Position numbers and translations under genes: made by a program
The notes under the pieces: generated by a model
What the model saw: only the letters and a program-made list of their open reading frames with translations
What the model was told of the DNA's origin: nothing
Database searches by the model: none
Assembly (NCBI GenBank): GCA_030950485.1
Contig: JAUZRK010000001.1
Coordinates: 39,998-103,997 of the forward strand
Source of the DNA: Candidatus Dojkabacteria bacterium
GTDB taxonomy: Bacteria; Patescibacteriota; Dojkabacteria; J137
Length of the DNA stretch: 64,000 nucleotides
Reading direction: 5' to 3'
Shown here: positions 1,060 through 56,341 of the stretch, piece after piece
Numbering within the stretch: position 1 is the stretch's first letter
Layout of the letters: each line of letters opens with the position of its first letter

Positions 1060-1076
1060 TAATGTAAATATAGTTT

Positions 1077-2159: not shown

Positions 2160-2181
2160 TTAACAGACTAGATAAATCAGC

Positions 2182-2209: not shown

Positions 2210-2232
2210 TCTCATGTAGTTTAATCAAAAAT

Positions 2233-2526: not shown

Positions 2527-2552
2527 AATTTTAAATATAAAATCCCATTTAC

Positions 2553-23800: not shown

Positions 23801-23964
23801 GAGTAAAAGGGGCTAGAACTACTCTAGATCATACAATTAAGTTGGGAAACAACTTACAAATAAGTAATATTGAGTCTGATATATCTTTCGTTCCGGGATC
23901 AACTGAGGTTGGCTATAATAAGCAAATACTGTCTGATCAAATCACTACTCTCAGCATACGTTAA
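20833..23964 (+). CDS. Large multi-domain protein (1043 aa): N-terminal NAD(P)-binding Rossmann (epimerase/SDR-like) domain, central TM segment, large C-terminal domain of unknown function
   Basis: N-terminal IIVGGISKLGLEVAESLVEQGGYVIIID (Gx2Gx2G-like). Hydrophobic stretch PLEIGALFVSVTLLIFVYFFAFAPFIYL near residue 430. About 600-aa C-terminal region with no recognisable domain. Confidence 0.45.
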   Translation: MRVPDQFKLKNTIKYPTSIIVGGISKLGLEVAESLVEQGGYVIIIDTVNEESIARLGTFSRNDLVSLLDYSSIPHLEEDIRRLDYVFYFNHEIVDFKNKISTQEFLTFSNYLDAVLTLATKFEAKFLLTSSIKVNQVILSEAELSLGLGSSDKVTHIYTEMETQKYAEGLVMEYGEKAELDVRIIRLGEIIGDEMNFRNLTSFTEFILNAVRGKALELKKDGLENEWYIHLLDAAYALIKAQFGSKTSARIFSASYDTSFSHLAIAYKIQEYSDGKTEIRFIRENDNLPSLKLYKPAKSLSDIGWVPKISFDKAIRESVASAKIFLAEKNIEKIKRNSNASLSSKLMSFLSLANDDSENRLNEDILDTMAREHDNDKKVKKNRLVLGHRDLKKRRRRPKTRKEKFQDIFWAGFTRFANIFTFFRNKSPLEIGALFVSVTLLIFVYFFAFAPFIYLTKNYTTAIQDTEELLDFANEKNYEQLTSKTEKIKIALEDNIDLLSMYEFSSKFITLEDELADIQEINDIYALAISGIIDVSENIDPLNVYLNEFYNNTVLRSGNESYLSINDNGVDFSAELSKVEGNRIYLVSGLEKLDKAIERLNKRDYTHLPEYIATRIVDMNLKLSELKSSLESSYYESYLAELLGATNQKTHLILVLDNTRLSPIGGDISAFALVTFKGGSVVDIVVRPVTDSLEIPTFSNEEIAYLNTNRFSLINATDIELNDFSSLTDFREFAFEMRSVFENEYERDIDGVITLNLNSLSELLSVNQIGPVNVSGLDFNESNFLNSLNNAQVQNENVEVRRDLIAQVLATFLYNEFNSYSNTYSDLVNKITSQLLLDNIYLDFDTSNIQDELDKNYISFAEDTDSYIKVTTLMNDPNNVNISKFSDINIALETSISNELSLSHKATVNFTNLGNGQELAVCLSRNTDPDSVVVSGLTSDSLRYVINEGEDDVCIVMRILSENSVTITWKEFSKFEVNGGETIIQLGVARVKGARTTLDHTIKLGNNLQISNIESDISFVPGSTEVGYNKQILSDQITTLSIR

Positions 23965-24058
23965 ATTTAATTTTGCTAATGCTAACTTTCGTGGTAATAT
24001 GGAAGTAATGGGTTCCTTTCGGGGATCTATTTTTACTGTTAATTTTTAAGAAAATATT

Positions 24059-24559
24059 GTGGCTAAAGAAATGCAAAGTGATAACGAAACAATCGAATTA
24101 ACTCAAGAAGCTCATGATGAATTGTCAGCTGAGTTAGAAGAACGTAAAACTGTTACACGACCAAAAATCGCAGAAGAAATTAAAGAAGCAAGAGAGTTAG
24201 GTGATTTAAGCGAGAATCATGCCTATACAACAGCAATGGAAAGAAAGGATTTAAATGAAGACAGAATAACTGATCTTGAGAGAATGCTTAAAAATACAAA
24301 AGTTGTTACAACTTCAGCTTCAACTAAAGTAGTAATGATAGGACATAGTATTGAAATTGAAAATACTGCTAATAATAGAAAGAAGGTTGTAAGACTTGTC
24401 GGAGGAGAAGAAACACTATCAGCGGATTCAAGAGAAGGTAAAATTTCTACAGACTCCCCTATTGGTAGAGCTATTTTCAAATCTAAGATTGGAGATGTTG
24501 TCAAAGTTGATCTTGGTGAAAGAGAAATTGAGTATAAAATTGTAAAATTTGTAAAGTAA
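24059..24559 (+). CDS. greA: Transcription elongation factor GreA
   Basis: ..KIAEEIKEARELGDLSENHAYTTAMERKDLNEDRITDLERML.. coiled-coil plus a C-terminal FKBP-like domain. 166 aa. Confidence 0.85.
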   Translation: MAKEMQSDNETIELTQEAHDELSAELEERKTVTRPKIAEEIKEARELGDLSENHAYTTAMERKDLNEDRITDLERMLKNTKVVTTSASTKVVMIGHSIEIENTANNRKKVVRLVGGEETLSADSREGKISTDSPIGRAIFKSKIGDVVKVDLGEREIEYKIVKFVK

Positions 24560-24577
24560 TTTCAAATGGGTTTAAAA

Positions 24578-24607
24578 AGAGGGCATCTTAAGCTGCCCTC
24601 TTTTTTT
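24578..24607 (+). terminator. Rho-independent terminator after greA (AGAGGGCA..TGCCCTCT + T7)
   Basis: Perfect 8-bp stem followed by T-run 24602-24608. Confidence 0.75.
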
Positions 24608-24619
24608 ACTTATATAACT

Positions 24620-25261
24620 TTATTTTTTACTTTCCTCTTTCTTTACCATTTTATAAGATTTCATAATGTACATTCCCCAGAAAATTAAGCTTGAAAATAA
24701 TACTGCTAAGCTATCTGCACTTAGGAAATCTGCTTTTTCATACATATTATCCAAAATATTTCCTGCTACTATAAATATTGAAATGAATGACAGAACTGAG
24801 AAGATTACTACACCTAAGTTTATAAAAACCTTGTTTGCAACTGTTCCTTCTTTTACATCTTCTGCTTTTATAATAGTATTGTAATAATAATGGAATGCCA
24901 TTATCATAAGTCCTATCAAAAGATAAACTAAACCTCTTACAAAAGTCTCAGATTCGATTTCTAGGTATGCATTCTCATCTGGAAGTATCACCTCAAAAAG
25001 ATATGATAAAACCATTTGAAGTCCAACAAAGGCTGAAATAGAACCTATAAGTAACCAAGCACAGTTATTGATTCTTGTACCTACCTTCATTAATCTAGGC
25101 ATGAATTCTTCTGCGTGCTTTTTGTTGCCTGAAAAGTAGTATAAAACTAGTCCAAACATTGCTAATGCAATTGGAAATAACATTACAGAGAGTAATGAGT
25201 TTATAACGGCAAGTCCTGCTGAAAATGCCATATCTAATCCTGTAGTTGGTCCACCTAACAT
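24620..25261 (-). CDS. Polytopic membrane protein, possibly CPBP (CAAX protease/Abi)-family intramembrane metalloprotease
   Basis: About 6 TM segments. EEFMPR matches CPBP motif 1 (EExxxR). FHYYYN matches HxxxN. Motif 2 is unclear. Confidence 0.3.
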   Translation of the reverse strand: MLGGPTTGLDMAFSAGLAVINSLLSVMLFPIALAMFGLVLYYFSGNKKHAEEFMPRLMKVGTRINNCAWLLIGSISAFVGLQMVLSYLFEVILPDENAYLEIESETFVRGLVYLLIGLMIMAFHYYYNTIIKAEDVKEGTVANKVFINLGVVIFSVLSFISIFIVAGNILDNMYEKADFLSADSLAVLFSSLIFWGMYIMKSYKMVKKEESKK

Positions 25262-25311
25262 AAATGAAAATTTAAATATATAATGTTTATTATATATTTA
25301 GAGTATAGAGG

Positions 25312-26760
25312 TTACAAATCTAGTTTTTCTTTTAAAAGCTCTTCAGTAGTATTAGGGTTTGCTTTACCTCTACTTTCTCTCATAACTAAGCCAACGAGGA
25401 ATTTTACAGCGTTCGGATTTTTCTTAATATCTTTTACGACTTTTTCATTATCGGATATTACTTTATCGACAAATTTTTCTAGTTCAGATTCATCAGTTAT
25501 CTGTAAAAGATTTCTTTCTTTTATAATTTCTTCTGCTCCAGCTTTTCCTGTAGTAAATATTATCTCAATGACCTTCTTAACTACAGTACCAGTTATTTTA
25601 TTTTCTAAAAGAAGATTAAGTAAATATAGAAAGTCTTTTGTAGTTAAAGGCATTTTTTCAAAGCTTGTTTTTCGTTTTTCAACAAATCCAGCAATGTCAG
25701 AGTTAATCCATTTAGATAGTTCTTTTGCTATCTTAGTATCGTTACTCCCTTCTTCTTGGCAAACGAGATCAAACCAATCACCTCTATCAGTATCCTCAAT
25801 AAATATATCAGCTTGTTCTAATTCAAGTCCTAATTCTAAATATCTAGTTTTTCTTTCTAATGGTAGCTCTTTAATACTTTCTTTTATTTCGTTAATCCAT
25901 GTATCATCTAATTTTATTGGAGGAATATCTGGTTCTGGAAAATATCTATAATCGTCAGCACTCTCCTTTGTTCTTTGTAATAAAGTCTCACCGGACATAT
26001 TTTTAAGTCCCCTAGTCTGACTAATCATCTTCTTGCCGTTATCAATTTCTATTGATTGTCTTTCATATTCAAAATCTATTACTTTCTCTAATACAGAGAT
26101 AGAACCGATATTCTTAACTTCGATTCTATAATCTGGAAGCTCATGCGCTGCTAGATCTGGAGTTTTTAGACTCATATTAAGCTCAAATCTCATCTGTCCT
26201 TTTTGCATTTCTGCGTCACTTACTTCTGCATATCTTATAATCTGTCTTAATCTTTTAGCAAATGCTGCTATCTCCTCTACTGTTTGAAAGTCCGGTTCAG
26301 TAACGATTTCAATTAATGGTGTTCCAGATTTATTGTAATCTACTAGTGTATCTTCGCCTTCATGAATTGATTTTGCTGTATCTTCCTCCATATGTACTCT
26401 CTTTATTCTAATTCTTCTAGAGTCATCCCCTATTTCAATTTCAACGTAACCATCTTCCCCAAATGGGATGTCTGATTGTGTTATCTGATAGCCTTTCGGT
26501 AAATCGGGATAATAATAGTTCTTTCTGTCAAATTTAGAATTGTTATTTATTTTACAATTTAGTGCAAGTGATAGTTTTATGCACTTTCTTATTGCCTCTT
26601 CATTTGGAACAGGAAGAGCGCCAGGTAAGCCGAAGCAAACAGGACATATATTTATATTTGCCTCTTTACCAAAATAATCTGAGCTACAGCTACAGAACAT
26701 TTTTGAATTTGTTTTTGCTTGTAAGTGGACCTCGAGTCCAATAACTGTTTGATATTTCAT
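25312..26760 (-). CDS. gatB: Aspartyl/glutamyl-tRNA(Asn/Gln) amidotransferase subunit B
   Basis: MKYQTVIGLEVHLQAKTNSKMFCSCS.. canonical GatB N-terminus. 482 aa with a C-terminal GatB/YqeY domain. Confidence 0.9.
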   Translation of the reverse strand: MKYQTVIGLEVHLQAKTNSKMFCSCSSDYFGKEANINICPVCFGLPGALPVPNEEAIRKCIKLSLALNCKINNNSKFDRKNYYYPDLPKGYQITQSDIPFGEDGYVEIEIGDDSRRIRIKRVHMEEDTAKSIHEGEDTLVDYNKSGTPLIEIVTEPDFQTVEEIAAFAKRLRQIIRYAEVSDAEMQKGQMRFELNMSLKTPDLAAHELPDYRIEVKNIGSISVLEKVIDFEYERQSIEIDNGKKMISQTRGLKNMSGETLLQRTKESADDYRYFPEPDIPPIKLDDTWINEIKESIKELPLERKTRYLELGLELEQADIFIEDTDRGDWFDLVCQEEGSNDTKIAKELSKWINSDIAGFVEKRKTSFEKMPLTTKDFLYLLNLLLENKITGTVVKKVIEIIFTTGKAGAEEIIKERNLLQITDESELEKFVDKVISDNEKVVKDIKKNPNAVKFLVGLVMRESRGKANPNTTEELLKEKLDL

Positions 26761-26791
26761 CAGAGTAATTCTAGCTTAAGAGAGCTTAATT

Positions 26792-27274
26792 TTAAAGCTC
26801 AACTACTTCATCTAGTTCAATTGCCATTTCTTCTTCAGTTCTATAGACAAATTCCCCTGGAGGTTGATGAGTTATGTACATTATTCCAGTATAGTCTCTA
26901 AATATATCTGGAAGATAATTACTTATGATCGCTCCTGGTGGTCTTTGTGACATACTGATACAATTTTCTGTTCTAAATATAGCGAAGTGCCCTAATTTTT
27001 CAGGGTCAATTTTTCCACCTTCTATATAAATATAAGAAACGCTTTATGGTTGGAGCGTTGGTGAAGCTTGCGAAGAATCAGCATGATAAATCTCTTGGGT
27101 TTCCAGCCATTTTATAGAGTTAGCTTGAGCCTTAGCTAGGCTACTTCCTTCTAGATGCTCAACAAGACCTGGTTCATACCCAGTCCCGGTTTCTCGAGCC
27201 CTTTCTTCAGAATAGTTTTGGTAAGTAAATTCTTCAGCCACCAGAGATTTTAGCGCGAATAATGTAATAAGCAA
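26792..27274 (-). pseudogene. Hypothetical gene interrupted by a single in-frame TAA (27044-27046); GC content above local background
   Basis: The 76-aa ORF (27044..27274) and the following 80 codons are in the same frame (..SPTLQP*SVSYIYIEGGKIDPEKLGHFAIFRTENCISMSQRPPGAIIS..EVVEL*). Family not recognised. Confidence 0.3.
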
Positions 27275-27401
27275 AGTTAAATTGCTATTGTATTACAACT
27301 CTGATATTGATATTTTCAAGAGGGTCGTGACATTATTAATGATGCATATATATCATTTAATCAATTTACTAACCACTTGCCCCTCATCACTAATCTCTAG
27401 C

Positions 27402-28910
27402 CTAAAACTCTATCTTCATTGCTTCCTTCATCTCATCCGCTATGCCTCTTGCTATCTTGCTTACTTTCTTACTGCCCTCTACAGCTTTTTCTACTAACTC
27501 AGCTTTCTTTCCTTCTGCCTCTCTTCTCTTTTCCCTAATCGGAGTTAAAACCTCGTTCATAGCAGCAAATAGTTTTTCTTTAACTTCAACGTCTCCAACT
27601 TTCCCAGCTTCGTATCTAGCTTTTAAGTCTGCTACTTCCTCTTTATTTGAATTAAACAAATCATGATAAGTAAATGCTACATTTCCTTCTACAGTGCCTT
27701 TATCAGTTGCATGAATTCTATTTGGATCTGTATAAACACTCATAATCTTTTTCTTCAGTTCTTCTTCTGAATCAGATAGATAAATTCCATTATTTAAGCT
27801 CTTTCCCATCTTTGCATTTCCATCAATACCTGGAACATTTTTAGGCACACCAAAATGTGCTTTTGGTTGTCCAAAAACCTCTTTTTTATACGTATTGTTG
27901 AATTTTCTAGCTATCTCCCTACAATCTTCTACCATTGGCGCCTGATCTTTACCAACAGGCACTAAATCTGCATTAACACAAAGAATGTCTGCAGCTTGAT
28001 GAGTTGGATAAATAAAGAAACCTAACGGAGTAGAATCTTCCATATTATTTTGTTTAATCTCAGTTTTCAATGTTGGGTTATGCATTAGTTGTTGAACTGA
28101 AACAAAATTCGAAAGATACATAAATATTTCATGTGTCTCTGGAACCTCACTTTGGATATAAACAGTTGATTTATCAAAATCTAATCCAGATGCATAGTAA
28201 TCACATAAAAGTTCTCCAATGCTTTGTTTTACTTTCTCAGGATTGTCTCGATTATCTGAAAGAGCATGAATATTTGCTATCAGAATAAAAGTCTCATATT
28301 CTTCCTGAAACTTCACTCGATTCATTAATGATCCGAATAAATGACCGATGTGTAATTTACCAGTTGGTCTATCTCCAGTAAGTATTCTTTTTTTTCTTGT
28401 ATCATTTAACACATTCTGTCTTCTTTCATTTGGAACCATTATGTCTACTCTCTCAAATATTGGAATTAGTTTTTCTAGATCAGTCCTTTTAATTTCTAAA
28501 GCTAATTCTGAGCTTGTGCTTCCACAAATGACTTTATTCATTTCAAAGAATGATTCATCGATAAGAATTTTATTAATTTTATTTTCTCCTTGTAGAAGAT
28601 CTAGAACCAAAGGTGATGCAAGTCCAGGTTCAAATCCTATAGATTTTAGCTCCTCATCAGATGCAAACGATACCCTGCTTGTTCCCAAATATTTTTTTAA
28701 TTTCTTAGAATCAATATTTTTATCATCTCTTCTTAGAATTCCAACATATTTATCTCCGCCATATCTAAATATTAAAGTTGATAAACCTTCTGAATATTTT
28801 ATCCCTAAAGATTTAACAATCTCGTCTATACTTAATGAACTAACCTTATGAAAGCTATGTTTAATATTTCTTTTTTCTAATAAATCTTTTATAAATTCAA
28901 AATGTTTCAT
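27402..28910 (-). CDS. trpS: Tryptophan--tRNA ligase with N-terminal YbaK/ProX-like aminoacyl-tRNA deacylase domain
   Basis: C-terminal TrpRS: ..TGDRPTGKLHIGHLFGSL.. (HIGH), ..VPVGKDQAPMVEDCREIARKFN.., ..KMGKS... N-terminal roughly 160 aa: ..STLIFRYGGDKYVGILRRDDKNIDSKKLKKYLGTSRVSFASDEELKSIGFEPGLASPLV.., a YbaK-like pattern. Confidence 0.8.
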   Translation of the reverse strand: MKHFEFIKDLLEKRNIKHSFHKVSSLSIDEIVKSLGIKYSEGLSTLIFRYGGDKYVGILRRDDKNIDSKKLKKYLGTSRVSFASDEELKSIGFEPGLASPLVLDLLQGENKINKILIDESFFEMNKVICGSTSSELALEIKRTDLEKLIPIFERVDIMVPNERRQNVLNDTRKKRILTGDRPTGKLHIGHLFGSLMNRVKFQEEYETFILIANIHALSDNRDNPEKVKQSIGELLCDYYASGLDFDKSTVYIQSEVPETHEIFMYLSNFVSVQQLMHNPTLKTEIKQNNMEDSTPLGFFIYPTHQAADILCVNADLVPVGKDQAPMVEDCREIARKFNNTYKKEVFGQPKAHFGVPKNVPGIDGNAKMGKSLNNGIYLSDSEEELKKKIMSVYTDPNRIHATDKGTVEGNVAFTYHDLFNSNKEEVADLKARYEAGKVGDVEVKEKLFAAMNEVLTPIREKRREAEGKKAELVEKAVEGSKKVSKIARGIADEMKEAMKIEF

Positions 28911-28989
28911 TGTTTATATTTTCGTAATTATTTTAATTATACACTTTTTAAGTAGTTACTCATTTCCAGATATAAAACTACCTAAAATA

Positions 28990-29014
28990 ACAAAAATCCC
29001 GCATTTGCGGGATT
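28990..29014 (-). terminator. Rho-independent terminator for the minus-strand gene ending at 29106 (AATCCCGCA..TGCGGGATT, U-tract on minus strand)
   Basis: 9-bp stem with an A-run at 28992-28996 on the plus strand (T-run on the minus strand). Confidence 0.6.
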
Positions 29015-29105
29015 GGTAAGTCGTTAAGTTTTAAAAGCTTTACCAAGCCCATCTGTCTGAATAGTTTTGCCAATATATTGAATATATCATAGAGTAATTA
29101 TATCA

Positions 29106-30157
29106 TTAAATGTGTTGATTTTGCTTAGCTGATAAAAGTAATTTAATTGTGTAGATCAAACCAATTAGTATTAGCGTGACTATACCAAGATATATAGTTA
29201 CATCTAATGCCCCAAATTCATCGATAAGACTACCTAATGGGATAGCGAGAATGACATATGGCATTCCTTTTATAATTGAAAAAGTAGACAATGCAGTGGC
29301 TCTATATTTTGATTCAATACTATCGTTTATATCTTTTGAATTTATAGCATTAATTGATGGTTCAAGCATAAATCTTATAGTTAGCAATACAATTGTTAAT
29401 ATAACTGAGTTGATATTTGTAAATAGTAAGCTCAATACGTATATAATTGAAAGAATACTGAAAAGTTTATTTGGTTCCATCTTAATTGTGGCTTTTGAAT
29501 ATATCCATGCGCCAAATGCGCTCGCAAATGTCATAGCTGAGAATAAAATTCCAAGCATTTCTTCAGGTATTCCTAATGCCATTGGATAAGCTGCATTCAA
29601 AACATTATCTAGTACATTCAGAACTCAAAATATGATTAAAAAATATACAAGCTTAATAAGTGGAATATTATGTTTAATTTGTTTTATACCTTCTCTGTTT
29701 TGTTTTATATAATTTCTTAGAGAAAATTTTTCAGAATCAATTGGAGGCTCAGTTATTAAAATTAGTATTAAAATTCCTCCTACTATAATAAATGTACCTG
29801 TAAAAAAATACGGTAATCCCTCATCAATTTTATATAGAAACCCACCAATTATTCCTGATACTCCTAGTAATAAGAGCTTATTTCTCTCTACTAGTGCCAA
29901 ATACTTATCATAAACATTTTCAATACCAAGAGATTTATGAGAATCATAGATTAACGCCTCAGCTGTTCCAGAATATAATGCAGCTCCTATTACTATTAGT
30001 AGTAAGGAGATAAAAGGTGATAGTATTCCGTACTAAATCCCATCAGAATATTTCCTAAACCAAATAGAAAAAAAGCAACGATTAAAGTACTCTTCTTTCC
30101 AAACAGATCGGAAAATGCCCCAGTGGGGATCTCAATTAATAATCCAAATTAAAACAT
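29106..30157 (-). pseudogene. MFS transporter, fragmented by multiple stops/frameshifts
   Basis: Pieces 29106..29600, 29625..29900 and 29900..30157 each read as MFS TM segments. The N-terminal piece carries MFS motif A (GAFSDLFGKKSTL) but starts MF* with an immediate stop. Confidence 0.6.
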
Positions 30158-30874
30158 AGAACTTTCTAAAAAGCCTATTCCTTCATAGTCTGGAATTGTC
30201 AGGTAAAATATTAACCAGACGCCTAGCCAGAACCAAGCCCTGTATAAAGCTAAGATATATTTTAAAACTTTTAGATTTTTCTCCATATTTCTATTTATAT
30301 ATCTTTTTTTTGCTCTCAATGAATAAACTACCTTAACCATACTAGTTAACATGCCTTTTGCGTCTGCGTAAGATACATCTAACTTTGAGTACTGCGTTGT
30401 ATTATTTCTAACATTTATTAACTGATAGACCATTATAACGGTCTCATTATATAGATCCTCTTTAAAATCATCAGCTAATAACACTACTCTTCTAGCAATT
30501 TCACATTGAAATGCAAATTTATTCCCCTTATCTAAAACATCATAAAGATCAGTAATTACATTGTAGCTATTTATGCTTTTTATATCCGGCTGATGACTAT
30601 GACAGTGAAATACAATTGAGTGTAGAGCCATTATATCGTCAACTACGTTACGGTTTAAAGCAGTAATCCCTGGATGATTTAATAAGTAATCGCCTACTTT
30701 ATAGCCATCCTCAAGCTCAATATCATAAAAACTTGGTTGGTCATATTTTTCAAATTTCTTACTAAGTTTTGAGCTGGATCTATCTTCATCTAACGGAAGT
30801 GCAGCATACAGTTCGTCTTGCCTTTTTTCTGAAAATAAGTCTATATCATCTCTACCTAAATTCACTGTCAGCAC
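30149..30874 (-). CDS. Hypothetical protein (241 aa; C-terminal TM)
   Basis: Complete ORF. No domain recognised. Confidence 0.3.
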   Translation of the reverse strand: MLTVNLGRDDIDLFSEKRQDELYAALPLDEDRSSSKLSKKFEKYDQPSFYDIELEDGYKVGDYLLNHPGITALNRNVVDDIMALHSIVFHCHSHQPDIKSINSYNVITDLYDVLDKGNKFAFQCEIARRVVLLADDFKEDLYNETVIMVYQLINVRNNTTQYSKLDVSYADAKGMLTSMVKVVYSLRAKKRYINRNMEKNLKVLKYILALYRAWFWLGVWLIFYLTIPDYEGIGFLESSMF

Positions 30875-30915
30875 TAATTAATGAAGTTAAAAAGCTTTTT
30901 ACCTCAGCAATTTTA

Positions 30916-31617
30916 TCATATAAACTCCCTTTTTTTACTATTATATGTATTAACTACAGCACTTCCAACAACTGCAATATCAGCATGTTGTGATAACGCT
31001 TTAATATGTTCAGATTTGGAAATTCCATAACCTACAGCAATTTCAGTTTTAATATATTTTTTTACTCTATTAATATGACTAGATAATTCTGGGTCTAATT
31101 CACTTTTTTCACCAGTCGTTCCTTTTCTACTTGATAAATAAATTAAATCTTTTGCGTACTTTGCATTTTTCTTTATCCTCTCATCAGTACTTGTCGGAGC
31201 AAGAAGCCTAATTGGGTTAATATTATATTTCTGGCGTAATTCAATAAAATGTTCTTTATCTTCCATTTCAATTGAAATATCTGGAATTATTAATCCATAC
31301 GCACCAGCCTCAGACGAATCCTTAATAAATTTCTCGAGACTATAGGCGTTTAAAATATTGAAGTAAGTCATAAATATTAGCTTTGCTTTTACTTTAGAGC
31401 TCATTTCTTTCATTAGTTTAAAAGCATCTTCTACTCTTGTACCATTTTCAGGTGCAATTCTATTAGCTTCCATTATTGTCGGTTCGTCTCCTAATGGGTC
31501 AGAAAAAGGGATCTGAAGTTCGATATAGCTAACTCCAACTTCGTCCATAGCCTCAATTAATTTCCTTGATTCTTCTAAAGTTGGGTATCCAACTACAATG
31601 TGTGTCATTAGTTTCAT
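30916..31617 (-). CDS. trpA: Tryptophan synthase alpha subunit (N-terminally short; possibly decaying)
   Basis: ..YIELQIPFSDPLGDEPTIMEANRIA.. (TrpA active-site region) and C-terminal ..IAVGYGISKSEHIKAL..VVGSAVV... 233 aa, about 20 aa shorter at the N-terminus than typical TrpA. Its partner trpB is a pseudogene. Confidence 0.7.
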   Translation of the reverse strand: MKLMTHIVVGYPTLEESRKLIEAMDEVGVSYIELQIPFSDPLGDEPTIMEANRIAPENGTRVEDAFKLMKEMSSKVKAKLIFMTYFNILNAYSLEKFIKDSSEAGAYGLIIPDISIEMEDKEHFIELRQKYNINPIRLLAPTSTDERIKKNAKYAKDLIYLSSRKGTTGEKSELDPELSSHINRVKKYIKTEIAVGYGISKSEHIKALSQHADIAVVGSAVVNTYNSKKREFI

Positions 31618-31776
31618 AAATTTGTTGTAATTTAAAATATAATTTTATATCTAATCCTTGTCGCATCCTCCCCGGCCCTCCTCCGAGCTCTAAGGAGAGA
31701 GAATGAGTTTGTGCCTTGAGCTGTACTTGCTTCCTCTATATGTAATGCCTTCTCTTTACAAATGAGAGGGAATTTT
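31605..31776 (+). repeat. Direct repeat copy 1 (about 170 bp) containing GC-rich palindromes; includes the trpA start region
   Basis: About 90% identical to 32315..32484 (..tcattagtttcataaatttgttgtaatttaaa..gtcgcatcctccccggccctcctccgagctctaaggagag..gagctgtacttgcttcctctatatgtaatgccttctctttacaaatgagagggaatt). Confidence 0.8.
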
Positions 31777-31830
31777 GATCGCTACTACCTCCTTCCATGC
31801 CTCGGCCGCTATTAATTATGAAGGAATTAC

Positions 31831-32238
31831 TCACTCATTCTCTCCGTCAGCTATGCGGTCCTCCCTTCCGCGAAAGGAGGGTTGGGAGGGATGCTGCAAC
31901 AACCACAGCTTAATTCTCTCCACAACTCCCCCAACATTACTCATAATTTCATAATTCCAAAATCTTACAACTCGATATCCCATCCCATTTAACACTCTAG
32001 TTCTTTCAACATCATATTCTCTTCTACTCAAATGAACCTCTCCATCTACTTCGATAACTAACTTATACTTTGCAATATAGAAATCAACTATATATCTACC
32101 AATTACTTTCTGTCTTAGAACTCTAACACCTAATTTATCTCGTCTGATTTCTTGCCATAATATGTTTTCAGACTTTGCCATATTAGTTCTATTCTCCCTA
32201 GCAAATTTCTTTATCCTTCTCATAAAAAAAATTAGCAT
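31831..32238 (-). CDS. DUF559 / Vsr-like (restriction-endonuclease-fold) domain protein, inserted between trpB and trpA
   Basis: ..ILWQEIRRDKLGVRVLRQKVIGRYIVDFYIAKYKLVIEVDGEVHLSRREYDVERTRVLNGMGYRVVRFWNYEI.. matches the DUF559 consensus. Its C-terminal 20 codons are encoded by an inverted partial copy of the flanking repeat (31831..31900). Confidence 0.65.
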   Translation of the reverse strand: MLIFFMRRIKKFARENRTNMAKSENILWQEIRRDKLGVRVLRQKVIGRYIVDFYIAKYKLVIEVDGEVHLSRREYDVERTRVLNGMGYRVVRFWNYEIMSNVGGVVERIKLWLLQHPSQPSFRGREDRIADGENE

Positions 32239-32314
32239 AGGTTTCGATTATTCAATCATCCAAAATCTTATCTTTGTAAGCTTCTTGAAAGCTTTCTGAC
32301 ACTCTTTCAATTGT

Positions 32315-32484
32315 TCATTAATTTCATAAATTTGCTGTAATTTAAACTTTATTTTATATTTAGTCTTTGTCGCATCCTCCCCGGGCCTCCTTCGAGCTCG
32401 AAGGAGGGAGAATTAGTTTGGGCCTCGAGCTGTACTTGCTTCCTCTATATGTAATGCCTTCTCTTCACAAATGAGAGGGAATTC
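32315..32484 (+). repeat. Direct repeat copy 2 (about 170 bp), with perfect 20-bp palindrome CTCCTTCGAGCTCGAAGGAG; carries a decayed duplicate of the trpA start (MKLMNN*)
   Basis: Aligns with 31605..31776. Weaker similarity continues about 60 bp upstream, into a degraded trpA 5' coding fragment. Confidence 0.8.
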
Positions 32485-32526
32485 TCAATTCAACTTGTCT
32501 TAAACTACATGAATTCCTTAGAATAA

Positions 32527-33841
32527 TTAGAAAAATTCACTTTTACTTTTTACTTTTGCCTTCAAATAATCCCTAAACCCCTCATCCCCAAACTCCTCAG
32601 TCAGAATAAATAAGTCTTTATCTCCACGTCCAGATAAATTAATCACAATTACATCTTCCTTCTTAGTCTTAGGAACAAATTTAATTGCGTATGCGACAGC
32701 GTGCAATGATTCTAAAGTACCTATTATTCCTTCAGTTGCTGCTAATGTTTTAAAAGCTTCTTTTACTTTATTATCAGTAGCGTGTTCATACTTCACTCTA
32801 CCCTGCTCGTATAGCATTGCATGTTGAGGGCCGATACCTGCGTAATCTAGGCCTGCAGAAATACTGTGAGTAGGTTGAACTTGGCCGTCAGTATCCTGTA
32901 GAAAATATGATTTATAAACCTTCTACAACACCAATTTTTGGATCATTATTAAGTCTAGATGCATGATCACCTATTTCTTTAACTCCTTTCCCCCCTGCCT
33001 CAACTGCTATTAAATTAACTTCTTTATCATCTAGAAAAGTATTAAATATTCCGATTGAGTTACTTCCACCTCCAACACAAGCAATAATATAACTTGGTTT
33101 AGTTTCTCCATACTTTGTTATTTGCTCCTTAACTTCTAACCCTATAATAGATTGAAAACCTCTAACCATTGATGGATAGGGATGCGGTCCTAATGCAGAT
33201 CCTAGTAGATAATAGCTATCGTCGACATTTGCAATCCAATCTTGAATTGCAGCTGTAACCGCGTCTTTTAATCGTCTTGTTCCATGCTTTATCGGAACTA
33301 CTGTCGCTCCAAGGCTTTCCATCCAAAAAACATTCGGCCTTTGTCTTTTATAATCAACTTCTCCCATATAGACAATACATTCCATTCCAAATTTTGCCGC
33401 AACTGTTGCAGTTGCAAGTCCATGTTGACCAGCTCGGGTTTCGGCAATCAATCTTTTCTTCCCCATTCTTTTCGCCAGAAGGGCTTGACCTAAGCAGTGA
33501 TTAATTTTATGTGCTCCAGTATGGTTCAATCCTTCATTTTTTATATAAACTTTTCCTCCTCCTAATTTCTCAGTTAAGTTTTTAGCATAATATAAGGGTG
33601 TAGGTCTTCCTCAGTAATTTTTATATAAATCATTTAAAAATTCTGGATCATTTTTAGCAGCTATATAAGCATTTTCTAATTCTTCTAAAGCTGGTATTAA
33701 CATCTCAGGAACATACGCGCCACCATAATTACCAAAGAAGCCTTTATTATCTGAATCATATTGTGTCTTAATGAATACTTGCTTTACCATGTAGTTCGTC
33801 ATAATAAGTAAATTCTGGAGATAAAAGTTCATTAATCTCAT
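32527..33841 (-). pseudogene. trpB: Tryptophan synthase beta subunit, disrupted (in-frame TGA near 33593, frameshift near 32905-32915)
   Basis: Three fragments: 33611..33841 (..[14 protein letters not shown]..), 32912..33529 (..[41 protein letters not shown]..) and 32527..32817 (..NLSGRGDKD..). Reading through, ..[16 protein letters not shown].. shows a stop inside conserved sequence, and ..VVEGL*/..VYKSYFLQD.. needs a 1-nt shift. Confidence 0.8.
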
Positions 33842-34112
33842 TTATAAAATCATTAGGGTTCTCAATGTCTGATACATCTGCTATTTTAGAGCTATCTAAA
33901 CATTGAATAATTTGTTGAACTTCGCTAGTGTCATTCCTTCTTAAAATAACTTGCCTTGCTGCAATAATAGAACCTTATAAGTTATTAGATTGGACTATCG
34001 TACCTATTATTAAATCAAGATTAAAATCAAACTGAGGATTAAATTCAATAGTCCTTCCCGTACTAATTATTTGTCTAACTAAATTACTAAACTGTATCAT
34101 TTTAAAATTTCT

Positions 34113-34141
34113 AAAAAATAAAAAAACACCCTTTCGGGTGC
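34113..34141 (-). terminator. Rho-independent terminator downstream of the minus-strand yerC-like gene (CACCC-TTTC-GGGTG with U-tract on minus strand)
   Basis: Hairpin 34127-34140 preceded on the plus strand by A14 (T-run on the minus strand). Confidence 0.6.
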
Positions 34142-34254
34142 TTCATAAAATTTATTCGTTCAGCTACACCCAATAAAAATTGAGCTGCCACCAAGTTTTA
34201 GAAATTAGTTTAGAAAAGTTCATAGAAGAATGATACTATACTAGTCTGCTAGTA

Positions 34255-34515
34255 TCAACTACTTTTTATTATTTTTAATTCACCATTTTTTAAAGCCTTT
34301 GATCCCCTTGTTACAGTAGCAACACCTACTCCTAATTTCTTTGCAATATCGTGGTGCTTTTCTCCTTTTAAAATTAATTCAACTATATCTATTCTTTTAG
34401 GAATTTCTTTCATTTCTTTTGCTGTAAGGATTCTTTTTAAGAATTTTGATATTTCTTTTGGATCATTTATCTCTGCTAGGATATCTACTAATTTGTTGAA
34501 ACTTGATTTTTTCAT
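34255..34515 (-). CDS. TrpR-like YerC/YecD-family small DNA-binding protein
   Basis: ..ILTAKEMKEIPKRIDIVELILKGEKHHDIAKKLGVGVATVTRGSKALKNG.. matches the YerC/YecD (Trp-repressor-like) family. 86 aa. Confidence 0.6.
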   Translation of the reverse strand: MKKSSFNKLVDILAEINDPKEISKFLKRILTAKEMKEIPKRIDIVELILKGEKHHDIAKKLGVGVATVTRGSKALKNGELKIIKSS

Positions 34516-34604
34516 TATCTAAATTTAATAGATTAATATATTAAATATTGTGTTGAAGTGATTTAATTGATAATCTTATCTAGTATATAGAGTTTTTACA
34601 GAAA

Positions 34605-36329
34605 ATGAAGAAAAGAAAATTTTTAATAGGAATACTTTTAATTTTAACGATAGGGTTAGTAGGTGCATCACTATATGTAGGATTAAATCTACAAAATAGT
34701 GAAGGTCCTGAAGATAGTAGTGCAAGTACTTCTTGTACAGATACTTCTCCTGCATGTGTAGGGAAATCTAATGGTGATGACGCGGGATGTCAGGGTGGAG
34801 GGAGTGCTTTTAGATGTAAATGTGTAGCCGTTGCTTCTAGTGACCCTAACTGTAGTTCAGGAACTCTAAAAGTTAACTGTAGTTATGCTGATTCGAGCTG
34901 CGGTACTCCAACTAATAAATGTCCAAATGGTTCAAATTATTCAGGAGGTTGCGGTCAAGATGGATGCGCTTCTAATCAAAAGCCTCTTTTTGCTTGTGAT
35001 GCTAGTACAGAAAATACCTCTAAGACTGGTTGTCAAAGATCTCAAGATTGTGAAAATACAGTAGATCCTTGTAATGCTAATAGCGGTAGAGCTAATGCGT
35101 GTCAATGTTCTAGTAGCGGACAGTGTAGTTCAGGTTTTTGTAATTCAAGTAATAAGTGTGCAACAAAAACTAGTATAGGTGGCTTCACTTGCCCTAATCC
35201 TCCAAATGCCAGTGCAGTAATTTGTGCAGTATATGACTGCCCTAATGGAGATACTAATGGAGATGGCGAGTGTTTAGCTAGTGATGAAGGATCTAGCGAA
35301 GCTTTTTATACTTCAAACTGTCCAAGTAGCCCTCCTTCTGGTTGTGGTCAAATTGATTATTATACAGCTGCTAGCGGAAGTAGACCTGATTTTGGCTCTT
35401 ATTGTGGTTATTCATTCTTAAGCTTTAGCGCATGTAGTGGTGGAGTATCAGATCCTGTTTGCGGTAATGGTAAAAAGGAAGCTGGTGAAGAATGCGATGA
35501 TGGTAACAATAACAATAATGATTCATGTAATAATAATTGTAAGACAGTTGTACAACCTGTTTGCGGTGATGGGAAAATGGATGCAGGAGAAACTTGTGAT
35601 GATGGGAATAAAATAGATGGTGACGGCTGCGATTCTAATTGTCAAATCTCACCAAAATGCGGCGATGGCAATATGGATACTGGAGAGACTTGTGATGATG
35701 GGAATAATATTGATGGTGATGGGTGCGATAGTACTTGTCAAATTGAAGTAGATCCAACTTGCGGAGATGGGAATATGGATGCTGGTGAAACTTGTGATGA
35801 CGGTAACAATATAAATGGTGATGGGTGTGACTCAACTTGTCAGCTTGAAGAAAACCAATGTGGTGATTCTTGTACTACAAATTCTGAATGCCCTAATAAT
35901 CATTCTTGTATTTCAGGAACTTGTACTTTAAATGGTTGTACAGATAGTAACTGTGTTAATGGCTGTGCTCCAGTTTGTGGCGGACCTTGTACTTCTAATC
36001 TTGATTGTCCAAATGATCATAGCTGTGATTTAAATACTAATAAATGTATCTTAAGTGAATGTGCTAATGATCCTACTTGTATTAATAATGGCTGTCTTCC
36101 AAAGACTGCTCTTTTCTCTTCTGATAGCGGAATTCTAGCTGAAGAAAACAGACTTTTACTAAATGGTGTAGTTTTAATTATTAGCGCACTTTTAATTTAT
36201 AGATTAAAAGCTTTTAGTAAAACAGCAAAGTTTATTTCTGATGCAAATATTAGATTTACGTTTACAGGGAATGAAGATAGAAAAAGAAAAGAGTTTGAGA
36301 AAAAAATGAGTAGAAAAACTAGTAAATAA
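34605..36329 (+). CDS. Cysteine-rich repeat surface protein (574 aa): N-terminal signal/anchor, tandem Cys-rich repeats, conserved C-terminal module with CLPKTA + TM + basic tail
   Basis: N-terminal MKKRKFLIGILLILTIGLVGASLYVGLNLQNSEGPEDS. Four repeats of CG(N/D)G..(E/D)xGE.CDDGN..(N/D)GD(G/S)C(N/D)..C (Myxococcus-type cysteine-rich repeat pattern). C-terminal ..ECANDPTCINNGCLPKTALFSSD.., a 20-aa hydrophobic helix, then RLKAFSK. Confidence 0.6.
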   Translation: MKKRKFLIGILLILTIGLVGASLYVGLNLQNSEGPEDSSASTSCTDTSPACVGKSNGDDAGCQGGGSAFRCKCVAVASSDPNCSSGTLKVNCSYADSSCGTPTNKCPNGSNYSGGCGQDGCASNQKPLFACDASTENTSKTGCQRSQDCENTVDPCNANSGRANACQCSSSGQCSSGFCNSSNKCATKTSIGGFTCPNPPNASAVICAVYDCPNGDTNGDGECLASDEGSSEAFYTSNCPSSPPSGCGQIDYYTAASGSRPDFGSYCGYSFLSFSACSGGVSDPVCGNGKKEAGEECDDGNNNNNDSCNNNCKTVVQPVCGDGKMDAGETCDDGNKIDGDGCDSNCQISPKCGDGNMDTGETCDDGNNIDGDGCDSTCQIEVDPTCGDGNMDAGETCDDGNNINGDGCDSTCQLEENQCGDSCTTNSECPNNHSCISGTCTLNGCTDSNCVNGCAPVCGGPCTSNLDCPNDHSCDLNTNKCILSECANDPTCINNGCLPKTALFSSDSGILAEENRLLLNGVVLIISALLIYRLKAFSKTAKFISDANIRFTFTGNEDRKRKEFEKKMSRKTSK

Positions 36330-36406: not shown

Positions 36407-38734
36407 ATGAAGAAAAAAAGTAGAAAAATTGTAATTGCAATATTATTAATATTAACTCTTGGTTTAACAGGAGTTTCTGTTTATGTAGGACTTAATCTAC
36501 AAACTAGCGAAGCCCCAGAAGATTCAGCAGCAGGATGTTGGTGTACGGGATCAAATGAATGCCCTAGTGGTTACAGCTGGCAAGGCTCTGGCTCTGGCTG
36601 GTGTAGTGCTCCATTAGGCTGCTGTAATGCTGGAGGTGGCGGTTCGGCTGGAGGTGGAAGTACTGGAGGAGGGACACCTTCTACAGGAAGTTCTGACGGT
36701 TCTGCTTGTACATTCGGTAATAACTCTACTTGCGGTAACGTTTGTTGTTCATGTGGTAAGTGTGGGGGTGTTACAAAGACTTGTAATCAGATATGTGGAT
36801 CTTCAAGTGCAGGTGGAAGTAATCAATGTGAGACAGATACAGGAAGACCTGTAAATTGTGCTTGTAATAATGGTTCGCAGTGTTCATCTGGGAATTGTTC
36901 TGGTGGTACTTGTAAAAATGCTATTGACCCTTGTTCTGAGACTTCTGGAAGACCAAATGGTTGCTCTTGCAGTTCAGGATCTCAATGTTCAACGGATAAT
37001 TGCTCTGGAGGATCTTGTAAAACAACAGACAATACTGGAGGTGGTTCAACAGGTGGAGGACTAGGAGTTGGTGATGCTTGTACATTAGGAGGAGCTAGCT
37101 GTCCAACAGGATCGGCTTGTACACCGAATCAAAATGGAAACAATGTATGTAATGCTATTGATGGTTCAGGATTAGTAGATGGAACAAACCTAACTTACAA
37201 CCAGTGCGTTGCAAGTGGTTCTACTTGCGGTGGTAATTATATTGCATTTAACTGTCCTAATGGATTTGGAGACCAATGTTTTGAAAATGAATTAAGAACT
37301 ACTTCTTTATCTGCTGCTACTTCGCATATGAATGGTTGCGGGCAAGTTGACACAGTATTCCAAGGTGGTTCTTGTAATGATCGTTTATGCGGTGGATTTG
37401 TTATTTCAAAAACAAACTGTGGAGGAGGCGGTGGTGGTGGAACTGTAGACCCTGCTGGACCAGTTTGTGGTAATGGAGTAAAAGAAAGTGGTGAGCAATG
37501 TGATGATGGTAATACAAATAATAACGATAGCTGTAATAATAGTTGTAAAACTGTAGTTCAGCCAGTATGTGGTAATGGTCTTATGGAAAGCGGTGAAGCT
37601 TGTGATGACGGTAACAATAATAATGCTGATAGTTGTAATAATAATTGTCAGATTGTAGACGCAATTAGCTGTGGAGATGGCGTTATGGAAGGTGATGAGC
37701 AATGCGATGACGGTAATAACGTAAACAATGATGGGTGTAGTGCAACTTGTACTTTAGAGCAGTTTCAATGCGGGGAGCCATGTTCAGTAGATGCTCAGTG
37801 TCCAAATGGCCATTCTTGTCTAGATGGAATATGTACATTAGATACTTGTACAGCACAAACATGTACAAATGGTTGCCCTAACTCTTGTGGTAATGGTGTT
37901 TTAGAAACAGGAGAACAGTGTGATGATGGGAATAATACAAATGGAGATGGATGTAGCGCTACTTGTACACTAGAGGCAATAGATCCTCTTTGTGGTGACG
38001 GTAATCTTGACCCTGGAGAAGAATGCGATAATGGTACAGGCAATGGAGCTGTTTGTACTCCAACATATGGAAATAATTGTCAGTTCTGTTCTCTTAACTG
38101 TTCTCAGTTAGAAATTGAAGGACCTAGCTGTGGTAATGGAACAGTTGAAAGTATGGAGCAATGTGATCCCTTAGCAACACCTAATGGCTGCGCAGCATCT
38201 TCAACATGTACTAGCTCTTGTATTTGTGAACCTGTGACTGGTCCACAATGTGGTGATACCTGTGGATCAAATCTAGATTGTCCAAATAATCATTCATGTA
38301 TTTCTGGTAAATGTACACTTAATGGATGTACCGATGGAAACTGTGTTAATGGTTGTTTCCCACTATGTGGAGGACCATGTACCTCAAATAAAGACTGTCC
38401 AAATGATCACACTTGTAATTTAATAACTAATCGTTGTGTATTAAGTGAATGTGCAAATGATCCAACATGTATTAATAATGGATGCTTGCCAAAGACTGCA
38501 ATATTCTCATCTGATGATGGAGTATTCTCTGAAAGTAATAGAAATTTAACTTTTGGGTTAATGATTATGGCTACTGCTCTATTGCTTTATAAGTTTAATT
38601 TCTTTACAAAGATAGGTTTAAATCTTACTGGAAGTAAATATAGATTTGTATTCTCTCCTTTAGATAATGATCTAAAACAAAAAGGATTTGAATATAAAGT
38701 AGAAAAAGACTTAGAAGATAAAGCTAAAGATTAA
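36407..38734 (+). CDS. Cysteine-rich repeat surface protein paralog (775 aa) with the same N-terminal anchor and C-terminal CLPKTA + TM module
   Basis: MKKKSRKIVIAILLILTLGLTGVSVYVGLNLQTSEAPEDS. Gly/Cys-rich N-region. Six or more CG(N/D)G..GE.CD(D/N)GN..(N/D)GDGC repeats. C-terminal ..ECANDPTCINNGCLPKTAIFSSDDG.. + TM + ..KFNFFTK... Confidence 0.6.
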   Translation: MKKKSRKIVIAILLILTLGLTGVSVYVGLNLQTSEAPEDSAAGCWCTGSNECPSGYSWQGSGSGWCSAPLGCCNAGGGGSAGGGSTGGGTPSTGSSDGSACTFGNNSTCGNVCCSCGKCGGVTKTCNQICGSSSAGGSNQCETDTGRPVNCACNNGSQCSSGNCSGGTCKNAIDPCSETSGRPNGCSCSSGSQCSTDNCSGGSCKTTDNTGGGSTGGGLGVGDACTLGGASCPTGSACTPNQNGNNVCNAIDGSGLVDGTNLTYNQCVASGSTCGGNYIAFNCPNGFGDQCFENELRTTSLSAATSHMNGCGQVDTVFQGGSCNDRLCGGFVISKTNCGGGGGGGTVDPAGPVCGNGVKESGEQCDDGNTNNNDSCNNSCKTVVQPVCGNGLMESGEACDDGNNNNADSCNNNCQIVDAISCGDGVMEGDEQCDDGNNVNNDGCSATCTLEQFQCGEPCSVDAQCPNGHSCLDGICTLDTCTAQTCTNGCPNSCGNGVLETGEQCDDGNNTNGDGCSATCTLEAIDPLCGDGNLDPGEECDNGTGNGAVCTPTYGNNCQFCSLNCSQLEIEGPSCGNGTVESMEQCDPLATPNGCAASSTCTSSCICEPVTGPQCGDTCGSNLDCPNNHSCISGKCTLNGCTDGNCVNGCFPLCGGPCTSNKDCPNDHTCNLITNRCVLSECANDPTCINNGCLPKTAIFSSDDGVFSESNRNLTFGLMIMATALLLYKFNFFTKIGLNLTGSKYRFVFSPLDNDLKQKGFEYKVEKDLEDKAKD

Positions 38735-56041: not shown

Positions 56042-56341
56042 CTAATGAGAGTGATGATGTGAATTCAATCTATCTAAAATTAATCTATATCCGTCCATTC
56101 CATTTTTCAAGAATCTATTAACTCTTGTAACAGTAGCAATACTAACGCCAGCCTCTGTTGCAACCTGTCTCTGTGGCTTACCTTTATCTAACTCCTTTGC
56201 GACTTCAAATCTTGATGAAAATTCTTCAATTTCTTTCTCAGTCAAAAGATCTCGCATAAAGTTAGCAGCCTCATCAACTGTCTTTAGTTTCAAGATTGCT
56301 TCAAATAAGTCCTCTGATTTTTTATTTTTCCATTTTATCAT
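56042..56341 (-). CDS. TrpR-like YerC/YecD-family small DNA-binding protein (second copy; His-rich C-terminus)
   Basis: ..LLTEKEIEEFSSRFEVAKELDKGKPQRQVATEAGVSIATVTRVNRFLKNG.. ending NSHHHSH. Confidence 0.55.
   Translation of the reverse strand: MIKWKNKKSEDLFEAILKLKTVDEAANFMRDLLTEKEIEEFSSRFEVAKELDKGKPQRQVATEAGVSIATVTRVNRFLKNGMDGYRLILDRLNSHHHSH

Follow-up and report, generated by a model that had tools for sequence, protein, structure and literature searches.

A putative relic of a tryptophan operon interrupted by a YcjD-like DUF559 nuclease gene in a Dojkabacteria bacterium

Is a tryptophan synthase gene pair with a broken trpB, a shortened trpA and a nuclease gene wedged between the two the remnant of an operon that is being lost, and did the inserted gene have a part in the loss? 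This question is raised by a 64-kb stretch of DNA (hereafter, the window) from a Candidatus Dojkabacteria bacterium (GenBank assembly GCA_030950485.1, contig JAUZRK010000001.1), for which an original prediction, made from the sequence alone, had described a decaying tryptophan biosynthesis (trp) locus. Coordinates given below are positions in the window, which is AT-rich (G+C content ~30%); the features of the trp locus lie on the minus strand, and everything listed in the original prediction was recovered at its place on that strand. The reading we favor, with a probability of about 0.75, is that the locus is a relic of a trp operon of the type found in the candidate phyla radiation (CPR), at a late stage of loss and interrupted by a cassette that encodes a YcjD-like nuclease of the DUF559 family. 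Along the minus strand, trpR is followed by a terminator-like hairpin, a dead open reading frame (ORF), trpB, a 909-nt insert and trpA. The features are:

34255..34515, minus strand: trpR-like repressor gene, 86 aa, apparently intact (Pfam Trp_repressor, E=7.7e-17)
34230..34258, minus strand: promoter-like TTGATA-17-TATCAT (10/12 match) around the CTAG-rich palindrome ACTAGCAGACTAGTA
34123..34144, minus strand: terminator-like hairpin and T run, downstream of trpR
33768..34100, minus strand: dead ORF of 110 codons with one internal TAA (33977..33975), overlapping the trpB start
32527..33790, minus strand: trpB pseudogene, with a TGA at 33613..33611, an extra T at ~32918..32916 and a Gly-to-Arg codon within 33442..33420
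32315..32483, minus strand: direct repeat copy A, with hairpin motifs TM1 (32479..32439) and TM2 (32410..32373), followed by a dead duplicate of the trpA 5' end (MKLMNN*)
31831..32238, minus strand: DUF559/YcjD-like Vsr-fold endonuclease gene, 135 aa (130 aa from the second ATG), apparently intact
31860..31893, minus strand: G/C-rich hairpin of the C-C-G type in the 3' end of the DUF559 ORF, CATCCCTCCCAACCCTCCTTTCGCGGAAGGGAGG, encoding a Pro/Arg/Gly-rich tail
31605..31774, minus strand: direct repeat copy B, with TM1 (31770..31730) and TM2 (31701..31664), then the live trpA start
30916..31617, minus strand: trpA, 233 codons, open, 3' truncated (Pfam Trp_syntA, E=9.7e-60)
30852..30936, minus strand: A7 run (30936..30930), then the lost TrpA C-terminal helix one frame over (KKGSLYDKIAEVKSFLTSLIS..)

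What remains of the trp operon

As predicted, trpB is in pieces, with an in-frame TGA inside the conserved segment ..KNY*GRPTPLY.. and a 1-nt frameshift further downstream. The conceptual protein aligns almost end to end with CPR TrpB proteins in tblastn searches, with 65-69% identity over residues 6-286 and 283-409; the identity to TrpB of one CPR locus, L004 (L-numbers denote the compared loci and contigs), is 65% at residues 9-286 and 59% at residues 287-409, and the best database matches of the middle fragment are 75-79% identical. The motif NHTGAHKIN, with the lysine that binds pyridoxal phosphate, is kept, in agreement with membership in PF00291. An uninterrupted frame and an intact ETGAGQHG loop are both missing, given the TGA, the extra T and the altered loop sequence ETRAGQHG. 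We judged these lesions against 40 full-length homologues. The TGA falls on a variable residue (D, V, A, S or C in the homologues), and the +1 frameshift consists of one extra T, GGT(T)TAT (..GVVEG|YKSYFLQD..), at a site where the homologues read GVVEG-YKSYFLQ without the extra base. Just 3 of the 108 columns that are invariant in the homologues are altered, so that trpB looks recently disabled; one of the three is the Gly-to-Arg change, G119R, in ETGAGQHG, which is predicted to hit the substrate-carboxylate loop.

The product of trpA is indeed short, 233 aa compared to 242-295 aa in homologues, the missing part being at the 3' end and not at the 5' end: the N-terminus MKLMTH matches several homologues, so the gene is not truncated at its start. 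TrpA appears to have lost its C-terminal helix through a +1 frameshift in the A7 run. When one A is removed, the alignment to the TrpA profile reaches position 261 of 263 instead of 246 and gains 4 bits. The protein still scores well above the thresholds of its family (PF00290), with 202 bits against a Pfam cutoff of 27 and 186 bits against a cutoff of 102 for TIGR00262, and keeps the catalytic Glu and Asp (IELQ..PLGD). The complete barrel with the C-terminal helix and the conserved DGP and GFGIS motifs are missing, the latter two being changed to DEP and GYGIS. Altogether, 9 of the 56 columns invariant in 16 CPR homologues are changed; at the same columns, 15 homologues have 0-3 changes each and one has 6. 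Given this proportion compared to 3 of 108 in TrpB, and the lost helix, the relaxation of constraint seems to have begun earlier in TrpA than in TrpB. The 241-aa ORF directly downstream of trpA (30149..30874, minus strand), the start of which overlaps the out-of-frame coding region for the TrpA C-terminus, had no Pfam or NCBIfam match.

The TrpR protein shares 57% identity with its counterpart at the head of the complete trp operon in L004, and scores 60.2 bits against NCBIfam TIGR01321, slightly below the cutoff of 67.25. The CTAG-rich palindrome is possibly a TrpR operator; sites resembling promoters occur here at no more than chance frequency, and a pattern search for TrpR operators likewise gave nothing above chance. 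In L004, the spacer between trpR and the next ORF (118..255) contains two hairpins and a terminator-like GACCTCCTGAAAAGGAGGTTTTTT, which suggests an attenuator-type leader; no Rfam family matched the corresponding part of the window. The ORF fragments upstream of trpB, which the original prediction took for a possible trpF-like remnant, do exist and form one frame of 110 codons that a single TAA interrupts. Their assignment to trpF is unsupported because this dead ORF has no detectable relative: it matched no Pfam family at E<=10 and showed no similarity to the 119-aa ORF of L004, and the region 33766..34255 gave no tblastn match to TrpF, TrpC, TrpD, TrpG or TrpE at E<=10.

Across the 64 kb, tblastn searches found TrpR, TrpB, TrpA and TrpS, and nothing for TrpE, TrpG, TrpD, TrpC or TrpF. 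CPR lineages are the source of all the closest TrpA and TrpB sequences. Among these, L004 carries trpR, the 119-aa ORF, trpE, G, D, C, F, B and A, followed by aro genes, L010 carries trpD, C, F, B and A, followed by trpS, and L007 carries trpC, B and A. Comparison with relatives thus yields trpB-trpA pairs without any insertion: the two genes overlap by 4 nt in L004, L126 and L127, where they are therefore probably translationally coupled, and the widest gap among the relatives is 77 nt. Because, of these genes, only trpR, trpB and trpA were found in the window (apart from trpS), the locus would correspond to the head (trpR) and the tail (trpBA) of a CPR-type operon. The broken trpB, the decay of trpA, the lack of trpE, G, D, C and F in the window and the existence of relatives with the full operon all bear out the idea of an operon being lost.

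A second, stronger TrpR-family gene, encoding 99 aa, lies far from the trp relic (56042..56341, minus strand; Pfam Trp_repressor, E=5.5e-24). At 27402..28910 on the minus strand, a 502-aa class I tRNA synthetase of the Trp/Tyr type with an N-terminal tRNA_edit (YbaK-like) domain is encoded; in L001, a second public assembly of the same organism (GCA_030949735.1), the gene call for this ORF covers the synthetase part only (345 aa).

The DUF559 cassette and its hairpin-bearing repeats

The insertion of about 900 bp claimed between trpB and trpA measures 909 nt, is absent from the relatives, and consists of a 43-nt spacer, repeat A (32483..32315), 76 nt, the DUF559 ORF (32238..31831), 55 nt and repeat B (31774..31605). 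The ORF is the only one in the insert, where neither a transposase or integrase ORF nor terminal inverted repeats were found. Its assignment to a DUF559 family with a Vsr-like nuclease fold stands on a Pfam match (PF04480) with E=1.6e-33 and 115 bits (cutoff 20.6), a match to PDB 3HRL (E=1.6e-18) and a full-length match to the NCBIfam YcjD model (E=8.4e-19). The catalytic-type columns D..E-x-D..H..D are kept (D47, E58, D60, H64 and D71). The protein has a 100% identical match in the annotation of a Candidatus Dojkabacteria metagenome-assembled genome; in an exact look-up, neither the TrpA of the window nor the 135-aa form of the DUF559 protein was on record, and the 130-aa form from the second ATG was matched in L001.

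Direct repeats, ~90% identical, bracket the insertion as described. Each is ~170 nt long, with a 143-nt ungapped core that is 90% identical and a further 41 nt that are 88% identical, at a spacing of 709-710 nt; a 24-mer from the repeat had 0 matches in 100 shuffles. Repeat A ends with ATGAAATTAATGAACAATTGA, which encodes MKLMNN*. This is the dead duplicate of the trpA start, MKLMTH, that had been reported in the second repeat; the last 13 nt of repeat B are the trpA start itself. The right-hand part of the repeat is thus native trpA DNA, and each copy joins G/C-rich hairpin motifs of the cassette type to the first ~13 to 58 nt of trpA; by inspection, 'KL..KLQQI', read in a shifted frame immediately upstream, is similar to the N-terminus of the long form of TrpA in homologues. 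The left-hand ~110 nt are G/C-rich and contain TM1 and TM2; they are best read as cassette-derived, judging from the relatives that have no trpB-trpA spacer at all.

Both motifs consist of a C-block, a loop, a G-block, a short loop and a mirror G-block, TM2 being CTCCCTCC..GAAGGAGG-CCCGG-GGAGGATG, and the hairpin in the 3' end of the ORF shares the CCCTCCTT stem type with TM2 and with the homologue in L002. This arrangement follows the block pattern of the BoxC/PIT/TMECO repeats as defined previously (C-block, loop, G-block, TTA or CCG loop, mirror G-block; PMC4666352). Within the 64 kb, the exact unit is confined to its two copies, and a different C5/G5 variant occurs twice more. RNA folds of the repeats are no more stable than those of shuffled sequence (z -0.4 to -0.1). 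Rfam searches gave nothing at gathering thresholds over the whole window and chance-level matches only at E<=10 over 30800..34700; a metagenome scan with the repeat core CCGGGGAGGATGCGACAA gave 15 matches, all of them short chance matches in contigs of 42-73% G+C. Solo BoxC/PIT-like motifs lie at 56459-56484, 59755-59780 and 44353-44395 in this 30% G+C genome. The two intergenic copies share ~45 nt (..TCCCCCTTGAGGGGGATTTAAGGGGGTGA..), and one solo G/C hairpin motif is 120 nt from the second TrpR-family gene. The copy at 44353-44395, inside a 631-aa ORF (44078..45973), has a TTA second loop as in E. coli TMECO type A. No second DUF559 gene was found near the solo motifs.

Hairpin-bearing direct repeats are common in the DUF559 family across phyla and are not a local oddity. 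We fetched 80 DUF559 loci from many phyla, 74 of which were testable for flanking direct repeats: repeats scoring at least 13 flank 32 of these 74, compared to 3 of ~130 control comparisons. The repeats range from 17 to 170 nt across loci, reaching 155 nt in the surveyed set, with 90-97% identity among those of up to 155-170 nt, which occur in many phyla; their spacing is mostly 470-620 nt, that is, one ORF plus one repeat. In about half of the repeat-flanked loci, the downstream copy starts inside the 3' end of the ORF, and the P/S/R/G-rich C-terminal tails of many DUF559 proteins are translated hairpin motifs. A perfect C/G-rich hairpin is present in 89 of the 105 intergenic gaps beside DUF559 genes and in 9 of the 128 other gaps of the same loci (odds ratio 74, Fisher p=3e-36). 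The closest DUF559 homologue outside this organism (L002, Dojkabacteria-like, 54% identity) lies between rnhB and rplS and is flanked by 38-nt direct repeats, each with C5-loop-G5-ATATA-G5; a CCCCTCCTT hairpin is located inside the 3' end of its ORF.

Housekeeping operons host some family members, which are oriented like the genes around them. In Paraprevotella (L116-L124, L012), the order is leuA-DUF559-leuC, with DUF559 overlapping leuC by 11 nt, a close parallel to trpB-DUF559-trpA; in Afipia-like genomes (L106-L115), it is ABC transporter-DUF559-psd-pssA. Recent transposition of DUF559 genes was considered and rejected, identical proteins (P0049 and P0003) being found in one context each. 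Likewise, a 'circular permutation' model, in which a G block follows the upstream hairpin and the complementary C block precedes the downstream hairpin, fits L018, L031, L055, L064 and L074 and is not general; we do not rely on it because the orientation of the third block has no consistent bias.

In E. coli K-12, ycjD is located between sapF and fabI; next come a second copy of the 3' end of ycjD and then a BoxC motif, ..CCCCTCGCCCCTCTGGGGAGAGGGTTAGGGTGAGGGG... The family of this ycjD-linked motif is dispersed, with members at a median of 17 places in an E. coli genome. It is known as BoxC, PIT or TMECO, with 23 intergenic copies in MG1655 and an association with rearrangements; no mobile element or enzyme has been tied to it (PMC4666352). 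The ycjD arrangement is present in 3346 of the 5426 complete E. coli genomes, and others, e.g., UPEC 536, carry eefRABCD there; a recent study concluded that eef has been lost at least twice, with ycjD in its place (PMC12817139). Our comparison (L125/L128) likewise shows ycjD with BoxC and eefRABCD as alternative occupants of the sapF-fabI spacer. Strains without the ycjD-linked copy have 1-15 BoxC-like places and strains with it 13-29, a difference that is confounded by phylogroup. In both E. coli and the window, a small ORF sits in an intergenic spacer with its 3' end running into C-G-G block motifs, and the solo motifs at 44353, 56459 and 59755 resemble the dispersed BoxC copies of E. coli. 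The two differ in that ycjD has motifs downstream only, whereas the DUF559 gene of the window has them on both sides, and in that the E. coli locus alternates with an operon, eefRABCD (PMC12817139).

Tentatively, and as a possibility on which we would not insist, DUF559/YcjD nucleases might be the cognate enzymes of the G/C-rich BoxC/PIT hairpin (intrastrand-triplex) repeats, from E. coli to cyanobacteria and CPR, much as RAYT transposases go with REP repeats. The nuclease would cut or otherwise process the motif, repair would copy the ORF between two motif copies, and solo motifs would be leftovers. The 170-nt repeats of the window would then be one such footprint and may have added to the instability that removed the trp genes; the loss of trp would parallel the situation in E. 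coli, where ycjD and BoxC stand in the place of the lost eefRABCD. A search of the literature found no paper linking DUF559 or ycjD with BoxC/PIT repeats, and such a partnership is apparently undescribed so far.

Alternative explanations of the locus

The alternative that survives best, although we consider it unlikely, is that DUF559 is a housekeeping, Vsr-like mismatch-repair nuclease, with incidental hairpin repeats and nothing mobile about the locus. The Caulobacter DUF559 protein VsrA has been proposed to act in very-short-patch repair (PMC12907096), so that, by analogy, a role of this kind would be a live alternative for the function of the protein itself; the conserved catalytic residues and the single conserved context of each of the identical DUF559 proteins point the same way. 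Incidental repeats are hard to reconcile, however, with the unrelated operon sites that the gene occupies in different lineages (trpB/trpA, rnhB/rplS, leuA/leuC, ABC transporter/psd and sapF/fabI), with the long, nearly identical direct repeats that bracket it in many phyla, with the duplication of the trpA start in the window, and with the alternation of ycjD and the eef operon at one locus of E. coli.

Improbable, in our estimate, is the second alternative, that errors of sequencing or assembly account for the frameshifts and perhaps for the TGA as well, and that intact trpB and trpA form a working indole-salvage module split by DUF559. Both frameshifts are in homopolymer-like runs (GGTTTAT and A7), and few other lesions are seen in trpB (3/108 columns). 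Furthermore, L001, which is identical to the window over 23832..33595, has one extra C at 31318, inside trpA, and an indel-rich contig end, indicative of error-prone data for this organism. L001 positions 1..2680 (window 36178..33595) differ by ~10%, with ~100 extra bases and many substitutions, and the other 9.8 kb are identical; the divergent part, which breaks trpR into a 51-aa fragment, appears to be either unpolished sequence at the end of the contig or a second strain. Nevertheless, both trpB lesions and the repeats are likewise present in L001, with identical bases in the two public assemblies, the TGA is a substitution and not an indel, G119R hits the ETGAGQHG loop, and 9 of 56 invariant TrpA positions are changed. 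Frameshifts are not a general problem of the assembly, given the long unbroken ORFs of 500-1043 aa that cover the rest of the window.

Several points nonetheless weigh against the interpretation as an interrupted operon relic. The trpB frameshift in a T run and the trpA frameshift in the A7 run are at typical sites of assembly errors, the two assemblies are perhaps not independent, and the contig end of L001 shows visible noise. With an open frame of 233 codons, trpA may keep some function, and the absence of trpE, G, D, C and F pertains to the 64-kb window and a 23-kb contig. The insertion is deduced from distant relatives (up to 57% identity in TrpA and 79% in TrpB), no close relative with an empty trpB-trpA junction having been found. 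Finally, identical DUF559 proteins each occupy a single genomic context, and the one in the window is a predicted nuclease with a putative target site and putative mobility.

Far less credible is a third alternative, under which the 170-nt repeats would be a transposon target-site duplication, integron attC sites or two structured RNA leaders. The direct repeats do flank a single small ORF and contain hairpins, but the insert lacks a transposase or integrase ORF as well as terminal inverted repeats, and a repeat length varying from 17 to 170 nt between loci is unlike the product of a fixed staggered cut. We therefore rejected an insertion sequence or transposon. An integron gene cassette was rejected as well: by inspection, the repeat has no RYYYAAC/GTTRRRY core sites of attC, and the locus has a single ORF (no genome-wide search for an integrase was made). 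RNA leaders are disfavored by the lack of an Rfam match even at E<=10 and by folds indistinguishable from those of shuffled sequence. No tRNA or tmRNA, sought as an integration target, was found in the window.

The weakest alternative, that TGA is a sense codon here (by a code 4-/25-like reassignment or local readthrough) and the TGA in trpB no lesion, can draw on the rarity of TGA among the stops of the 39 open frames of at least 200 codons (TAA 28, TAG 10, TGA 1) and on an in-frame TGA in a nearby MFS-like gene (29627..29625), but is hardly tenable because only two in-frame TGAs fall on real coding frames in 64 kb, whereas a reassigned codon would be scattered across most genes, because TGA terminates the DUF559 ORF and the ORF at 13914..14480, and because the trpB +1 frameshift and G119R would still stand; moreover, TGA reassignment is known from Gracilibacteria and Absconditabacteria and is not known to occur in Dojkabacteria.

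The same MFS-like gene (29106..30032, minus strand), just downstream of the trp relic, is split by its TGA into frames of 135 and 172 codons and is probably another pseudogene. More genes may be broken at 27046 and 54664 (minus strand), where an in-frame TAA interrupts a frame that is open to either side. On the plus strand, 34605..36329 and 36407..38734 encode adjacent large Cys-rich proteins of 574 and 775 aa, both with CGDG..GE.CDDGN..DGC repeat modules, an N-terminal hydrophobic segment and similar C-terminal anchors; these are probably surface proteins.

Proposed order of loss and known counterparts

If the locus is a relic of a CPR-type trp operon, its decay would have proceeded in four steps. 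First, the genes from trpE to trpF would have been deleted, leaving a trpR-trpBA module capable of indole salvage at most. Second, the DUF559 cassette would have entered between trpB and trpA and ended their coupling. Third, selection on TrpA would have been relaxed and, fourth, trpB would have been inactivated recently. The cell would now have to import tryptophan, with a TrpRS-type synthetase gene kept nearby. The DUF559 ORF together with its hairpin motifs would be a small selfish unit landing in short intergenic spacers, which might enter by break-and-repair or by recombination at a hairpin-forming motif; the outcome would be hairpin-bearing direct repeats of variable length without a fixed transposase footprint, and at the trp locus the duplicated flank would include the trpA start. 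The insertion probably predates the inactivation of trpB because the repeats have diverged by ~10% while trpB has few lesions. That the insertion caused the decay is possible. The original prediction of a loss following a mobile or duplicative insertion is thus upheld as far as the insert and its diverged duplicated flanks are concerned.

Chlamydia trachomatis has a trpR-trpB-trpA operon for indole salvage, with inactivated alleles in ocular strains. The locus described here resembles it in the host-dependent reduced genome, in the position of trpR beside trpBA, in the lack of trpE, G, D, C and F, in a TrpA that is degenerate relative to TrpB, and in the frameshift and nonsense alleles that mark the loss of salvage. 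By analogy with chlamydial trpRBA, the longer relaxation of TrpA would fit a stage at which only indole salvage by TrpB mattered. The differences are the phylum (CPR), the damage to trpB itself and the foreign nuclease gene between trpB and trpA.

The association of the DUF559 gene with its repeats can be compared to that of REP/REPIN repeats, which go with RAYT transposases, HUH enzymes of the Y1 type. In both cases, the gene is present in a single copy and has on either side members of a family of short, dispersed intergenic repeats that form hairpins. Unlike RAYTs, DUF559 has the PD-(D/E)XK Vsr fold and no known activity on the repeats, and its flanking copies are direct repeats. DUF559, Vsr and I-Bth0305I have been placed in one clade (PMC3424549), and free-standing and EDxHD-type (I-Bth0305I) homing endonucleases share with the gene of the window a Vsr-related domain and the setting of a small nuclease gene wedged between operon genes. 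The protein has a weak PADLOC 'HEase' match (E=3e-4); PDB 3R3P was not retrieved with it at E<=1. An EDxHD homing endonuclease was rejected, as the 135-aa protein consists of the nuclease domain only and lacks NUMOD or any further DNA-binding extension, and the locus contains neither an intron nor an intein. Caulobacter VsrA, with the same domain and likewise genetically solitary, is an active DNA-damaging nuclease in vivo, damaging DNA when the solitary cytosine methyltransferase is missing (PMC12907096); its role is tied to the motif of that methyltransferase, and no flanking repeats are reported. For the BoxC-type repeats, Holder et al. (2015) found no association with mobile elements (PMC4666352).

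As a decaying operon, the trp relic is an ordinary, if neat, case, and a clear snapshot of the stepwise loss of a biosynthetic pathway in a CPR bacterium. The apparent order of loss, with the early trp genes first, then TrpA and then TrpB, has a parallel in chlamydial trpRBA and helps to judge the metabolic dependence of Dojkabacteria. It is the inserted cassette that raises the interest of the locus. DUF559 is among the most widespread uncharacterized nuclease families, and the BoxC/PIT repeats of E. coli and cyanobacteria have been orphans since the 1990s, linked to genome instability and with no enzyme tied to them. The strong physical association of the two, spanning phyla, provides a concrete hypothesis that could be tested at the bench with E. 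coli ycjD.

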